This document shows positions 60,895 to 64,000 of a stretch of 64,000 nucleotides of DNA, in pieces. The number at the start of each line of letters is the position of its first letter. Positions within the stretch are counted from its first letter, which is position 1. The DNA comes from an uncultured Oscillospiraceae bacterium. Lineage in GTDB: Bacteria; Bacillota; Clostridia; Oscillospirales; Oscillospiraceae. Below the pieces are notes generated by a model, which searched no databases, was not told the DNA's origin, and was given only the letters and a program-made list of their open reading frames with translations. The stretch is taken from NCBI GenBank assembly GCA_947585425.1, contig CANPWZ010000001.1:70367-134366 (forward strand). The letters are read 5' to 3'. The position numbers and the translations under genes were made by a program.

Positions 60895-61030
60895 AAGACA
60901 ACTGGATAACTGTCTTCAGGGCGGGGTGAGATTCCCCACTGGCGGTACAGTCCGCGAACCATGTTGCACATGGCCGACCCGGTGAAACTCCGGGACCAAC
61001 GGTATAGTCCGGATGGAAGAAGATGTGTTG
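60895..61030 (+). ncRNA. FMN riboswitch (RFN element)
   Basis: Conserved cores CTTCAGGGCGGGGTGAGATTCCCCACTGGCGGTA...GTCCGCGA and CCGGTGAAACTCCGGGACCAACGGTATAGTCCGGATGGAAGAAG. Followed by ribU. Confidence 0.92.
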
Positions 61031-61100
61031 CGCAGCTCCTTTTGATCGACACCTGAGAAGGCAATTTTTCAGGCGTCTGCATCGGAAAGGAGTGTTTTTT

Positions 61101-61796
61101 ATGTCCAATGTTCCTGAGAACGCCGCCGCCCCCCGTGTTGACAGCGCCCAGCGCGTCCGCACCGTGGTCACCCTGGGTATGCTGGTGGCCATTGCCTACG
61201 CAGTGATGTGGGTCTGCAAGCCCATCCCCAAGGTGATGGGCATCCTCCAGTTCGATTTGAAGGACTGCGTCATCGTCATCGGCGGGCTGCTGTTCGGCCC
61301 GGTGGCCGCCGCCGTGTCCTCCCTGGTGGTGGCCCTCATCGAGATGGTCACCGCCAGCGGCACCGGCCCCATCGGGATGTTGATGAACTTCCTGTCCACC
61401 GCCAGCTTCTGCGTCACCGCGTCCATCATCTACAAGCGCCGCCGCACCCAGATGGGGGCGGTCATCGGCCTGGCCTCCGGCGTGGTGGTGATGGTGGCGG
61501 TCATGCTGCTGTGGAACTGGCTCATCACTCCCATCTATCAGGAGGTGCCCCGGGAGGTGGTGGTCTCCATGCTGCCCACCGTGTTTCTGCCCTTCAACCT
61601 GGTCAAGGGCGGGCTGAACATGGCCGCCGCCCTGCTGCTGTACAAGCCGGTGGTGAGCGCCCTCCGGGCCGCTCATCTGGCCCCTCCCTCCGCCAGCGGC
61701 AAGACGGGGAAGATCAACGCGGGATTCGTCCTGTTCGCTCTGCTCCTGTTGGCCACCTTTGTGGTGCTCATGCTGGTGCTGACCGGCCTCATCTGA
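61101..61796 (+). CDS. ribU: ECF-transporter S component for riboflavin (RibU)
   Basis: Downstream of the FMN riboswitch. About 231 aa with 5-6 TM segments, typical of ECF S components (DLKDCVIVIGGLLFGP...). Confidence 0.85.
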   Translation: MSNVPENAAAPRVDSAQRVRTVVTLGMLVAIAYAVMWVCKPIPKVMGILQFDLKDCVIVIGGLLFGPVAAAVSSLVVALIEMVTASGTGPIGMLMNFLSTASFCVTASIIYKRRRTQMGAVIGLASGVVVMVAVMLLWNWLITPIYQEVPREVVVSMLPTVFLPFNLVKGGLNMAAALLLYKPVVSALRAAHLAPPSASGKTGKINAGFVLFALLLLATFVVLMLVLTGLI

Positions 61797-61803
61797 CAAC
61801 ATG

Positions 61804-61840
61804 AAAACCGCCCCGCCGGTCCTCCCGGCGGGGCGGTTTT
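61804..61840. terminator. Bidirectional terminator AAAACCGCCCCGCCGG-N5-CCGGCGGGGCGGTTTT
   Basis: 16-nt arms between the convergent ribU and the GNAT gene. Confidence 0.88.
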
Positions 61841-61863
61841 GCGTCCGTGGGGCGGGGGAGGGC

Positions 61864-62418
61864 TCACAGGGCCCGCACATACCGCAGATCGACGCACACG
61901 GTGTCGTGGGGGAATGTGATCTCGGCGAAGGTACCGTCCCAGGCGAAGCCGTGGCGGGCGTAGAACCGCCGGGCCCCCTCGTTCTCCCGGAGGACGAACA
62001 CGAAGCAGTTGGAAAACCCGTCCGCTTTCAGCCGTCCCAGCGCCTCCTCCATGAGGATGGAGCCGTAACCCTTGCCCTGCTCCCCCGGCAGGGTGTAGAA
62101 GGTGGCAAGCTCCCCCCAGTCCTCGTACCCCTCGTTGGGGAATTGACACTCGGCGGAGTTGAAGTTGTCCTTCCGGGCCCGGCAGTAGTTGAGGCAGGCC
62201 ACCGGCGCGTCCCCCCGGTATAGCAGGAGCCCCTTGATGCCGTTCCTGCTCTCGTAGTTGGAGCGGAAGGCCTCCAGCCAGTGGCCGTCATCGATGGCGT
62301 CCAGAAAGTCGTCCGGCACCGCGCCCCGGTAGCTGATTTTCCACGCCCGGGCGTGGATCATGGACATGGCCCGGAAGTGTTCCTCCGCGCGGGCGTCCAC
62401 GATGTGCAGTTCCTCCAC
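61864..62418 (-). CDS. GNAT-family N-acetyltransferase
   Basis: Acetyl-CoA motif GEQGKGYGSILMEEAL and RFYARHGF. Start reassigned to the GTG at 62418, 8 nt from SD AGGAG; the ORF-track TTG at 62436 lies inside the terminator U-tract. Confidence 0.8.
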   Translation of the reverse strand: MEELHIVDARAEEHFRAMSMIHARAWKISYRGAVPDDFLDAIDDGHWLEAFRSNYESRNGIKGLLLYRGDAPVACLNYCRARKDNFNSAECQFPNEGYEDWGELATFYTLPGEQGKGYGSILMEEALGRLKADGFSNCFVFVLRENEGARRFYARHGFAWDGTFAEITFPHDTVCVDLRYVRAL

Positions 62419-62434
62419 AGGATCATCTCCTAAC

Positions 62435-62460
62435 AAAAGACCCGCCCGGTCGGGCGGGTC
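62435..62460 (-). terminator. Intrinsic terminator GACCCGCCCG-AC-CGGGCGGGTC followed by TTTTGTT, 3 nt upstream of the GNAT SD
   Basis: Read on the minus strand: stem of 9-10 bp, then a U-tract running straight into AGGAG. Confidence 0.8.
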
Positions 62461-62462
62461 AA

Positions 62463-62685
62463 ACCGGCAGGCGTCCCCGTTCCCGCCCTCGCCTCAGGTC
62501 AATGCGTGGTAGTACAGAATAAAGGCCGAAGCCCGATAACGATGCGCTCGTACCCGATCGGGGCTACATGATACAGAGGACTCGAACCCCGCGCGGCCCT
62601 GCGCGTTCCACCTATTCCGGCGGTTTATCCTCTTGCCGGAGCCGAGGCCGCATTACGCCCCCGAGGTTACCAACGATCTGCCGGT
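62463..62685 (-). ncRNA. Structured RNA of about 225 nt of unrecognised class (riboswitch-like attenuator or leader)
   Basis: 8-bp closing helix ACCGGCAG (62685-62678) / CTGCCGGT (62470-62463). Nested helices CCUCGG/CUGAGG and AAUGCG/CGCAUU. Inner junction AGAGGA/UCCUCU encloses hairpins CCGCC-GGAAUA-GGUGG and CGCGC-AGGGCC-GCGCG. Also a UUCG-capped hairpin and a T-loop-like GGUUCGAGUCC. Confidence 0.55.
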
Positions 62686-62687
62686 CC

Positions 62688-63137
62688 TTATAAATCGACG
62701 GTCCAGTTGGTCTGCTGGATGGTGTTGTCCAGCAGGCGGAGCTCCTTGGAGATCTGGTCGGCTTTCTTCTGGAGGGCTTGGACGTCCACGGCGCTCATGA
62801 TCTTGATCTCGCTGCGGGTGGCCCGCTGATAGGTGCGGCTGGCGGTCTGGGCCAGGTCCCGGAGGGTGCCCGCCTGCTGGGTCAGGGCGTCCCGCCTGGC
62901 GATGAGCTCGGTGAGGGTCCTGCCCTCCACCACCGTCCTGCAGTTGGTCAGGTTGATCCTGGCGGCGATGGCCTCCAGGGCGGCCAGGGCGCCCTCGTAG
63001 TCCTTCAGCAGGGCGGCGGGGTCCTCGGCGGTCTTTTCGCCCTCCTGCACCAGGGCGTTGTCCATCAGACGGCTCCTGAGCTGCTGGACCTTCCGATTCA
63101 GGTCGGCCCGCTCCTGCAATGCCTCTGCCAGTTTCAT
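62688..63137 (-). CDS. DIP1984-family (septicolysin-like) coiled-coil protein
   Basis: MKLAEALQERADLNRKVQQLRSRL N-terminus and about 149 aa of all-helical protein, typical of this family. Confidence 0.7.
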   Translation of the reverse strand: MKLAEALQERADLNRKVQQLRSRLMDNALVQEGEKTAEDPAALLKDYEGALAALEAIAARINLTNCRTVVEGRTLTELIARRDALTQQAGTLRDLAQTASRTYQRATRSEIKIMSAVDVQALQKKADQISKELRLLDNTIQQTNWTVDL

Positions 63138-63164
63138 GGTGATCTCTCCCTTATATGATGGTTT

Positions 63165-64000
63165 TTACGCGTGGATCAGCTCTTTTTCCTCCTCCGCGGC
63201 GGCCTGCTTGGCCAGCTGCCGGGCGTTGGCCAGCATCAGCTTGATGCGGTTCTCCTGGTTGATCTTCGTCGCGCCGGGGTCGTAGTCGATGGCCACGATG
63301 TTGGAGTTGGGGTAGTCGTCCTTCAGCCGGCGGATCATCCCCTTGCCCACGATGTGGTTGGGCAGGCAGCCGAAGGGCTGGGTACAGACGATGTTGGGCA
63401 CCCCGGAGTGGATGAGCTCCAGCATCTCGCCGGTGAGCAGCCACCCCTCGCCCATCTTGTTGCCGTCCCCCAGGTAGCCGTGGACCAGCTTGTGCATCTC
63501 CTCGAAGGTGCCGGGGGCCCGGAAGCGGCTCTTTTTCAGGGCGGCGATCATGTCCTTCTGGCAGTTCTCGATGAAGCCTTTGAGGATCTGGCACGCCTTC
63601 TTCTTCACCCACAGCCCGCCGTAGATGTCCACGTCCACGATGCGGTTATAGACCTTGAAGATGATGAAGTCGGTGAGGCCGGGCACCACCGGCTCCGCCC
63701 CCTCGGACAGGAGGAAGTCCTCCAGGTTGTTGTTGCCCAGGGGGGAGAACTTCACATAGATCTCGCCGACCACGCCGACGCGGACCTTCTCCTCGTCCTT
63801 CACGGGGATGGAGGCAAACTCCGCGATGATTTGGTCAAAGAGGGCCAGCATCTCCTTGCGGACCATGCCCCTGCCCTTCTGGAAGCCCTGGGTGATCTTC
63901 TCCTCCCAGTGTTCCACCATGGCGTCGGCGTCCCCGCGGTTGAGCTCATAGGGCCGCACCTGGTTGGCCACGTTGACGATCAGATCCCCGTACATCATGG
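63165..64000 (-). CDS. C-terminal part of a large acyl-CoA dehydratase activase-related protein, 5' end beyond the window
   Basis: VGEIYVKFSP, GWLLTGEM and TQPFGCLPNH motifs, characteristic of the C-terminal domain of BcrAD/BadFG-fusion 'CoA enzyme activase' proteins. The ORF is open at 64000. Confidence 0.7.
   Translation of the reverse strand, partial: MMYGDLIVNVANQVRPYELNRGDADAMVEHWEEKITQGFQKGRGMVRKEMLALFDQIIAEFASIPVKDEEKVRVGVVGEIYVKFSPLGNNNLEDFLLSEGAEPVVPGLTDFIIFKVYNRIVDVDIYGGLWVKKKACQILKGFIENCQKDMIAALKKSRFRAPGTFEEMHKLVHGYLGDGNKMGEGWLLTGEMLELIHSGVPNIVCTQPFGCLPNHIVGKGMIRRLKDDYPNSNIVAIDYDPGATKINQENRIKLMLANARQLAKQAAAEEEKELIHA

Follow-up and report, generated by a model that had tools for sequence, protein, structure and literature searches.

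A conserved structured RNA on the 3′ side of DIP1984/DUF6847 genes in at least six bacterial phyla

The window analyzed here is a 64,000-nt stretch of DNA from an uncultured Oscillospiraceae bacterium (contig CANPWZ010000001.1, positions 70,367–134,366; all coordinates below are window positions). Its minus strand carries a gene of the DIP1984/DUF6847 family, a structured RNA directly 3′ of that gene, and a gene for a GNAT acetyltransferase. The RNA, at 62460–62688 (−), is a member of a large, strongly conserved structured RNA family of about 215 nt. It belongs with the upstream DIP1984/DUF6847 gene, a partnership found in at least six phyla. The family is new, lying outside Rfam 15 and undescribed in the literature that was searched. 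The original prediction for this region had proposed a riboswitch-like RNA of unrecognized class that controls the GNAT gene. A structured RNA of unrecognized class is borne out by the lack of any Rfam 15 match together with strong covariation. An RNA class dedicated to GNAT control is not supported, as the RNA tracks the DIP1984 gene across phyla and is followed by a GNAT gene in just 25 of 120 loci.

The RNA and its flanking genes

The DIP1984 gene occupies 62688–63137 (−), encodes 149 amino acids, and ends with a UAA stop codon at 62690–62688. Its product is a full-length member of the DIP1984/DUF6847 family, matching the NCBIfam model NF038048 with 178.9 bits over residues 2–149 (cut-off 70), Pfam PF20935 with 166.8 bits, and the protein of PDB entry 3KDQ with an E value of 2e-23. 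The gene is located within an ordinary operon. The GNAT gene, at 61864–62418 (−), has a likely GTG start at 62418, a Shine-Dalgarno (SD) sequence AGGAG at 62431–62427, and a match to Pfam Acetyltransf_1 of 1.2e-13. The 270 nt between the UAA and this likely GTG contain no minus-strand open reading frame (ORF), and a consensus scan of 61700–63300 returned no promoter-like site. The conserved UUGAC of the RNA was considered as a −35 box and rejected; inspection found no −10 box at the correct spacing, and the same scan gave no site.

Between the RNA and the GNAT gene lies an intrinsic terminator, GACCCGCCCG-AC-CGGGCGGGUC followed by UUUUGUU (62432–62460, −), which is outside the conserved RNA. 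The terminator and its U-tract had been described before and were recovered by the consensus scan. The predicted hairpin has a 9-bp stem with 8 GC pairs and a 4-nt loop, as expected of an intrinsic terminator, and the GNAT SD abuts the U-tract.

Conservation and fold of the RNA family

The evidence for the RNA comes from comparison of homologues. Eighty loci with close DIP1984 relatives were taken from species-representative genomes (single loci are denoted below by L and a number), and an nhmmer search with the window element gave a match directly 3′ of the gene in 63 of them. Alignment A1, made with MAFFT from 51 copies and no structural guide, shows long, nearly invariant stretches between helices that carry compensatory sequence change. 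RNAalifold on this unguided alignment predicted 21 pairs, 18 of them with double changes. A covariance model, R1, was built from A1 and a hand-curated structure, with 216 positions and 36 pairs. R1 recovers the RNA in 79 of the 79 loci that extend past the gene, with 45–201 bits and always on the gene’s strand; the 80th locus was excluded, its contig ending at the DIP1984 gene. The window copy scores 140.4 bits (E 5e-45) over all 216 model positions, and the R1 scan found no second real copy of the RNA in the window.

In the model-fitted alignment of 80 sequences, for which RNAalifold on the unguided A1 is the independent check because the alignment is fitted to the structure, standard pairs fill 89.7% of the cells; the share drops to 67.2% on shuffling and to 32–46% when the partners are slid. 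Compensatory changes occur in 34 of the 36 modeled pairs, values that 0 of 500 shuffles attain. The column pairs ranked highest by mutual information with average product correction (MI-APC) are model pairs in 21 of 21 cases. G–U pairs are frequent and A–C pairs rare, and this excess of G–U over A–C identifies the transcribed strand as that of the DIP1984 gene.

The single sequence is a poor guide by comparison. Dinucleotide shuffles have a minimum free energy of −109.5 ± 5.1 kcal/mol, and the window RNA, at −112.8 kcal/mol, differs little from them (z = −0.66); 47 shuffles out of 200 fold equally well. Because this fold is no better than chance, the case made by the original prediction could not rest on the window alone. 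The small z and the lack of conservation in three of the helices first proposed would both fit chance pairings in G+C-rich intergenic DNA that encodes no functional RNA. That explanation is already refuted by covariation and conservation over more than 160 loci from six phyla.

In the family fold, P1 closes the structure and P2 and P3 nest within it; these are accompanied by an H-type pseudoknot, a GGGC-loop hairpin, a hairpin resembling a tRNA T-arm that some members lack, and a nearly invariant G-rich 3′ core. The support for each helix was judged against 79 to 155 homologues. The parts are given here in 5′ to 3′ order of the window copy, all on the minus strand, with the core from P1 to P1 spanning 62463–62685. 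Every string quoted in the original prediction, GGUUCGAGUCC among them, was found on this strand at the position it had been assigned, though not every helix drawn from these strings survives comparison.

P1 was placed correctly. Its 5′ strand ACCGGCAG (62678–62685) starts 2 nt after the stop codon and pairs with CUGCCGGU (62463–62470), with double compensatory changes in 8 of 8 pairs across the 80 sequences. The joiner GGUAA that follows (62667–62671; family consensus GGUAG) is nearly invariant in alignments A1 and A3. P2 forms between CCUCGGG (62660–62666) and CCUGAGG (62492–62498) and takes in the CCUCGG/CUGAGG helix, with its one G–U pair, that had been recognized earlier. It covaries (example pair types CG 35, UA 27, GC 7, AU 5) and gives the top MI-APC pair. 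P3 joins AAUGCG (62649–62654), preceded by a conserved GGGCG, to CGCAUU (62501–62506), followed by the conserved UUGAC. This helix, too, had been proposed and is backed by the homologues, with 99% of its cells paired and switches of AU↔GC, UA↔CG, and CG↔UA. Next to these helices a non-canonical pair covaries, at columns 47 and 370 of A3 (approximately G62659 and A62499 of the window), where 62 sequences have G-A and 9 have A-G. The pattern suggests that a purine pair, sheared or trans, is conserved beside P2/P3.

The segment after the 5′ strand of P3 is predicted to be an H-type pseudoknot made of P4 and a CCUC/GAGG stem. P4 (62617–62639) pairs CCGGC (62639–62635) with GCCGG (62621–62617), a register assigned by hand in the window, and it covaries among the homologues (GCGG/CCGC, GUGG/CCAC, CCGG/CCGG, UUGG/CCAA). 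The pseudoknot stem is formed by CCUC (62644–62647; family consensus UCUC) and GAGG (62629–62632) within the P4 loop AAGAGGAUAAACC (family consensus CUGAGAAUGAG). Its variants include UCUC/GAGA, GCUC/GAGC, CCUC/GAGG, ACUC/GAGU, UCUU/AAGA, ACGC/GCGU, CCUU/AAGG, and others. Of the 34 sequences without the UCUC joiner, 25 still form 4 bp or more with the loop of their own hairpin; with permuted loops the number is 16 ± 2.3 (maximum 23 in 1000 permutations). Two of the helices first proposed are replaced by these pairings. The GAGG of the supposed AGAGGA/UCCUCU junction helix pairs with the upstream CCUC, and its UCCU is instead the 3′ strand of the T-arm; in place of CCGCC/GGUGG, GCCGG pairs with CCGGC.

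The next hairpin, P5 (62590–62605), has the form CGCGC-AGGGCC-GCGCG given in the original prediction and backed by the comparison. Its loop sequence GGGC is conserved, and its example pair types are UA 29, CG 28, AU 5, and GC 4. Directly after P5 comes the T-arm-like hairpin GGG-UUCGAGU-CCU (62577–62589). A T-loop-like element had been noted here, and the comparison supports the hairpin but makes it an optional domain of the family. The motif GGGGUUCGAaUCCCC is kept in most homologues and absent from L034, L038, L043, L045, L046, L056, the Bacteroidales loci, Paracoccus, and Picosynechococcus. A conserved UGG just 5′ of P5 tends to vanish along with the T-arm (T-arm-less L019, L034, L038, L043, and L067 versus the others). 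As judged by eye and with phylogeny as a confounder, this co-loss would fit a contact of the D-loop/T-loop kind.

Further 3′, GCCCCGA (62558–62564) is conserved as a single strand, with C128 and A133 invariant in A1. The helix AGCCCCGAU/AUCGGGCU that would have occupied it is not supported, its proposed partner being unconserved. The GGC-UUCG-GCC hairpin (62524–62533) is present in the window as described, but it is a variable insertion that occurs with differing sequences in only a subset of homologues. CUACC (62508–62512) is conserved and its ACC invariant. GGUAG and CUACC were considered as a helix and left unpaired, since no compensatory change supports it and its formation would mean crossing P2 and P3. 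The G-rich core GAGGGCGGGAACGGGG (62475–62490; consensus GAGGGYGGGnAnGGGG) has A202–G205, G209, G215, and G216 invariant in A1. The core motif lies 165–330 nt past the stop codon in most loci and up to 523 nt past it in L066, and a regular expression alone finds it in 68 of 80 loci. In a search for its partner, GCCC proved compatible with GGG(Y), a candidate contact whose two sides are both nearly invariant.

The most conserved parts of the RNA are thus single-stranded or without assigned pairing: GGUAG, GGGCGAAUG, GCCCnGA, ACC, UUGAC, and GAGGGYGGGnAnGGGG. The window copy contains P1 to P5, the pseudoknot, each of these segments, the G-rich core, and the position after a DIP1984 stop codon, which together define the new family.

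None of this corresponds to a catalogued RNA. At E ≤ 10 on 62300–62800, Rfam returned only terminator look-alikes (anti-hemB, ncS037, RNAI), which were dismissed as chance matches. No Rfam hit covers the RNA in 20 homologous loci of different lineages, and the Rfam models for self-cleaving ribozymes, tRNA, transfer-messenger RNA (tmRNA), YrlA/Y RNA, 6S, RNase P, and raiA did not reach the gathering threshold. ARAGORN found 0 tRNA or tmRNA genes in the window, and the T-arm-like hairpin lies inside the structure, with about 110 nt separating it from the 3′ strand of P1, which places the RNA outside tRNA and tmRNA. A segment that follows the RNA in L006, L007, L011, and L018, GAAAGUCCGG, was considered as the start of an RNase P RNA and is actually a terminator stem. 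The literature searched held no description of the RNA and none tying DUF6847, PF20935, or NF038048 to an RNA; an unnamed entry in a bulk catalogue of structured-RNA candidates is possible.

Two known RNAs were also identified. The only hit in the whole window at the Rfam 15 gathering score is a flavin mononucleotide (FMN) riboswitch, RF00050, at 60908–61028 (+) with 113.7 bits. It lies directly 5′ of a gene for the S component of an energy-coupling factor (ECF) riboflavin transporter (61023–61796, +; Pfam ECF_trnsprt and ECF-ribofla_trS), an ordinary and known arrangement. In L073, from a Lachnospiraceae metagenome-assembled genome (MAG), positions 1944–2158 (−) upstream of the DIP1984 gene match the Streptococcus sRNA SpF66 with 50.7 bits (gathering 42), which is unrelated to the RNA described here.

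Linkage to DIP1984 genes and downstream context

The RNA lies on the strand of the DIP1984 gene and typically begins 0–12 nt past the stop codon, the P1 start being at 2 nt in the window and at a median of about 6 nt elsewhere. This linkage is found on chromosomes and plasmids of Bacillota, Bacteroidota, Spirochaetota, Pseudomonadota, Actinomycetota, and Cyanobacteriota. The RNA was found after every DIP1984 gene examined, including distant plasmid homologues with 35–47% protein identity. The plasmid copies score 92.9 bits in Mycobacterium branderi, 75.2 bits in Streptomyces, 46.6 bits in Picosynechococcus, 45.5 bits in Paracoccus versutus, 21.6 bits (E 6e-7) in Acinetobacter baumannii pAB0057, and 15.4 bits, a weak match, in Enterococcus faecium. 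In annotated records, the RNA sits in the unannotated gap 3′ of the gene. On pAB0057 (L081, NC_011585.2), for instance, positions 1501–2176 hold a DIP1984-family gene and then a divergent RNA copy in such a gap.

The linkage also holds in reverse. A pattern made from the 3′ part of the RNA only was searched against metagenome contigs, and the 80 listed matches were scored with R1. Among these listed matches, 76 of 80 are strong R1 hits, and 74 of the 76 have a DIP1984 ORF immediately upstream, with the other 2 at contig ends. The gap between gene and RNA in this set is −4 to about 150 nt for almost all, with a median of about 5 and two outliers. Contig ends aside, no strong RNA hit among the matches listed is without a DIP1984 gene. 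The same pattern had no hit in 2.9 million viral contigs.

The spacing varies in one group of loci. In five related loci, L016 (3515–3550), L040, L059, L066, and L075, a spacer of about 100–330 nt separates the DIP1984 stop codon from the RNA. The last part of this spacer, abutting P1, is a conserved AT-rich hairpin, GGUUCCUUUUUC-UUUCAA-GAAAAAGGAAC, which may be a small repeat that was inserted or a signal for processing.

A self-contained pair of gene and RNA with no conserved neighbors could be a mobile two-part module of addiction or defence type, in which the RNA neutralizes the protein as in type III toxin–antitoxin pairs. The distribution has some of the expected traits. It is patchy across phyla, and the pair is abundant on small Acinetobacter plasmids, which account for 342 of the 371 matching plasmid records. 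A single MAG, Angelakisella sp. CM_BacAng2251.97, has two DIP1984-plus-RNA modules (L006 and L007), on separate contigs and with the same terminator type. Such a module is nevertheless improbable. DIP1984 has no match in PADLOC or PHROGs, the viral contigs are devoid of the pattern, and the window gene sits inside an ordinary operon. The RNA lies 3′ of the gene, not 5′, and Tandem Repeats Finder detected no tandem repeats in 62300–63300, whereas type III antitoxin RNAs are made of them.

On the downstream side, almost nothing is shared. By a strict terminator search, at least 62 of 145 loci have a hairpin and T-tract no more than about 110 nt after the RNA, with stems that are unrelated. Across 71 genome loci, the nearest ORF past the RNA was assigned to 59 different Pfam families, most often dockerin (6), ApbE (5), and GNAT (4), and it may lie on either strand; nothing in the neighborhood is conserved apart from the gene and the RNA. 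The 25 loci with a GNAT homologue downstream on the same strand all belong to one syntenic Oscillospiraceae clade. These counts were made by phmmer on translated downstream DNA; naive longest-ORF calling gave antisense artefacts in high-GC loci (clusters c1–c3).

In the window, the stretch from the DIP1984 gene to the GNAT start is free of promoter-like sites. Transcription of the GNAT gene must therefore come from read-through, and the gene is probably expressed only by way of read-through of the RNA’s terminator. The original prediction was of a riboswitch or attenuator for GNAT. The heptamer GGGCGGG occurs twice, at 62488–62482 within the RNA core and at 62447–62441 in the terminator. In the unliganded state the upstream copy would pair with CCCGCCC in the 5′ arm of the terminator (62458–62452) as an antiterminator, and the folded state would leave the terminator to form. 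The complement CCCGYCC is indeed present no more than 70 nt after the RNA in 17 of 27 GNAT-clade loci versus 2 of 121 elsewhere, though the 27 clade members are related, so that 17 of 27 is weak evidence rather than 17 independent observations. In the other 10 of the 27, the complement is absent or replaced; within the clade, L048, L066, and L149 have terminators built on other stems, and a terminator is lacking altogether in L044 and L093.

The family as a whole makes GNAT control very improbable as the function of the RNA. The heptamer is part of a core nearly invariant in all homologues, with or without a terminator after the RNA, and no antiterminator role is needed to account for its conservation. 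RNA sequence and structure are likewise kept where the next gene encodes ApbE, a dockerin protein, xth, or others, or is on the opposite strand. The terminator does not overlap P1, unlike in standard expression platforms, and no mutually exclusive pairing between the RNA and a terminator or SD was found family-wide. A riboswitch is a 5′ leader with coherent downstream genes, and this RNA lies 3′ of DIP1984 with varied genes downstream. A clade-specific gating of GNAT read-through, as a local add-on, is possible. The 3′ arms of GNAT-clade terminators (GGGGCGGGGAC and similar; L016, L088, L108, L152, and 62448–62439 of the window) resemble the RNA core GGGCGGGnAnGGGGAC, a likeness that could be due either to shared ancestry or to functional mimicry.

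Possible roles and likeness to known systems

The protein partner gives few hints of its own. More than 5,000 clusters at 90% identity match DIP1984 at E ≤ 1e-5, all of them PF20935 and all unnamed. The AlphaFold (AF2) model, with a predicted local distance difference test (pLDDT) score of 91, shows four long helices packed as a bundle and, at residues ~100–118, a loop that is both flexible and conserved, and a Foldseek search of the PDB gave 3KDQ as the sole match (TM score 0.95). On Acinetobacter plasmids the gene is annotated as ‘septicolysin’ and listed as a virulence factor, a label without support in anything seen here.

The reading that best accounts for these observations, though it is held only tentatively, is that the RNA extends the DIP1984 transcript at its 3′ end and functions together with the encoded protein, or acts upon it, as a ribonucleoprotein partner or an autoregulatory operator. 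The RNA would be made as the 3′ end of the DIP1984 mRNA, in keeping with the lack of any promoter-like site in the space between the two and with the terminator found after many copies. It would then fold to a compact tertiary structure and act with or on DIP1984, serving as the RNA subunit in a ribonucleoprotein with that protein or offering it an operator for feedback on its own mRNA. Feedback is plausible because a ribosome that terminates on the stop codon would cover the start of P1, so that translation termination and P1 folding would be expected to interfere with each other. In the clade of the window, the terminator after the RNA may also gate transcription into the promoter-less GNAT gene, which would be a local consequence and not the purpose of the family.

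Several observations weigh against this reading. Contact between DIP1984 and the RNA is a prediction from genome sequences. DIP1984 proteins are near neutral to mildly acidic (median isoelectric point 5.8; 5.2 for 3KDQ), unlike most dedicated RNA-binding proteins, and the four-long-helix fold, with 3KDQ as its only Foldseek match, resembles no known RNA-binding protein. The RNA is large and has near-invariant unpaired nucleotides, traits in which it is closer to metabolite aptamers or ribozymes than to simple operators for a protein. The RNA is also sometimes intercistronic, a co-directional gene following it without a terminator in L009, L028, L033, L046, L063, L069, and L072. In L076 (4734–4950), the only such genome locus, the RNA (64.7 bits) lies about 1.3 kb 3′ of the DIP1984 gene with an ORF between them, which could be a rearrangement or an independently transcribed copy. 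The stronger form of the proposal, that DIP1984 is the protein half of an unrecognized multi-phylum ribonucleoprotein whose RNA half is a 215-nt, pseudoknotted, partly tRNA-like RNA from the 3′ end of its own mRNA, is more doubtful.

An acidic protein and an aptamer-like RNA keep two further explanations alive. One is that the RNA acts independently of the protein as a cis sensor in the 3′ untranslated region, binding a small molecule, an ion, or a universal cell component and setting the fate of the DIP1984 transcript through 3′ decay, termination efficiency, or ribosome release. Its size, its multiple pseudoknots, and its near-invariant unpaired nucleotides across six phyla resemble riboswitch aptamers, DIP1984 is not basic, and P1 begins a few nucleotides past the stop codon. 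Such a sensor would have to act 3′ of the gene it controls, a mode of action not known for any established class of bacterial riboswitch. No conserved alternative pairing or expression platform was seen, and no ligand can be guessed because the associated gene is without assigned function. A sensor of this kind is therefore unlikely.

The other explanation has the RNA processing itself or resisting nucleases, as a ribozyme that frees itself or a 3′ stabilizer, or acting in trans as a non-coding RNA that uses the DIP1984 promoter. A complex conserved fold directly between the stop codon and, often, a terminator would suit these roles, as would its intercistronic position at times. It matches no Rfam self-cleaving ribozyme, however, and promoter sharing alone would not explain a strict two-way linkage across phyla and plasmids. 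These roles are rated as quite unlikely, below the cis sensor.

Whichever role applies, large and highly conserved bacterial RNAs of unassigned function are rare and have repeatedly been a source of new biochemistry. This one comes with a handle, as it is strictly partnered, one to one, with a single family of small proteins for which a structure is solved; 3KDQ has been a crystal structure without assigned function since 2009. The carriers include A. baumannii with pAB0057-type plasmids, Enterococcus (weak RNA match), Paracoccus, Mycobacterium, Streptomyces, Picosynechococcus, and Ruminococcus flavefaciens. As these are culturable and tractable, the orphan RNA and the orphan protein family are directly testable together. 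Annotation should be corrected as well, for the ‘empty’ 200–300 nt 3′ of DIP1984 genes are an RNA gene. If the ribonucleoprotein reading is true, the pair would be a new bacterial protein–RNA machine of the SmpB–tmRNA or Ro–Y RNA kind.

Comparison with known systems helps to place the locus. With terminating riboswitches and attenuators it shares the order, in the window, of RNA, intrinsic terminator, and promoter-less ORF, and a possible GGGCGGG/CCCGCCC competition. It differs in that this arrangement is found in one clade only, the supposed antiterminator is in the universal core, and the terminator does not overlap the closing helix. An obligate site 3′ of one protein family in at least six phyla is the arrangement of no established riboswitch class. 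The type III toxin–antitoxin RNAs (ToxI, CptI) are likewise non-coding partners of a protein in a compact, mobile two-part module. Theirs, however, are tandem repeats of about 36 nt located 5′ of an endoribonuclease gene, and here a single 215-nt RNA is located 3′ of a gene for a helical protein.

Orphan motifs of the raiA type (RF03072) are closer in form, being about 200 nt long, pseudoknotted, rich in invariant unpaired nucleotides, recognized by covariation, and without assigned biochemical function. The present RNA differs from them in scoring on no Rfam model, lying 3′ rather than 5′, and being tied to a single protein family. That last trait is shared with smpB–ssrA (tmRNA), rsr–yrlA, and TnpB/IscB–omega RNA, in which a structured RNA immediately 3′ of one protein gene is inherited together with it. 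tmRNA and YrlA also carry a hairpin like the T-arm of tRNA, as does the RNA trailing DIP1984. There are differences here too. The 149-aa DIP1984 protein is built of four helices and lacks SmpB, Ro, and RuvC domains, and its physical association with the RNA is putative. ARAGORN and Rfam found no tmRNA, tRNA, or Y RNA at this locus, and the T-arm is dispensable in many members. Omega RNA and reRNA are defined by a partner with RuvC or RuvC plus HNH, whereas the partner here matches only DUF6847/DIP1984 and its fold only 3KDQ. By analogy, then, the locus appears to resemble most the protein–RNA partner loci such as smpB–ssrA and rsr–yrlA, while standing apart from each of them.

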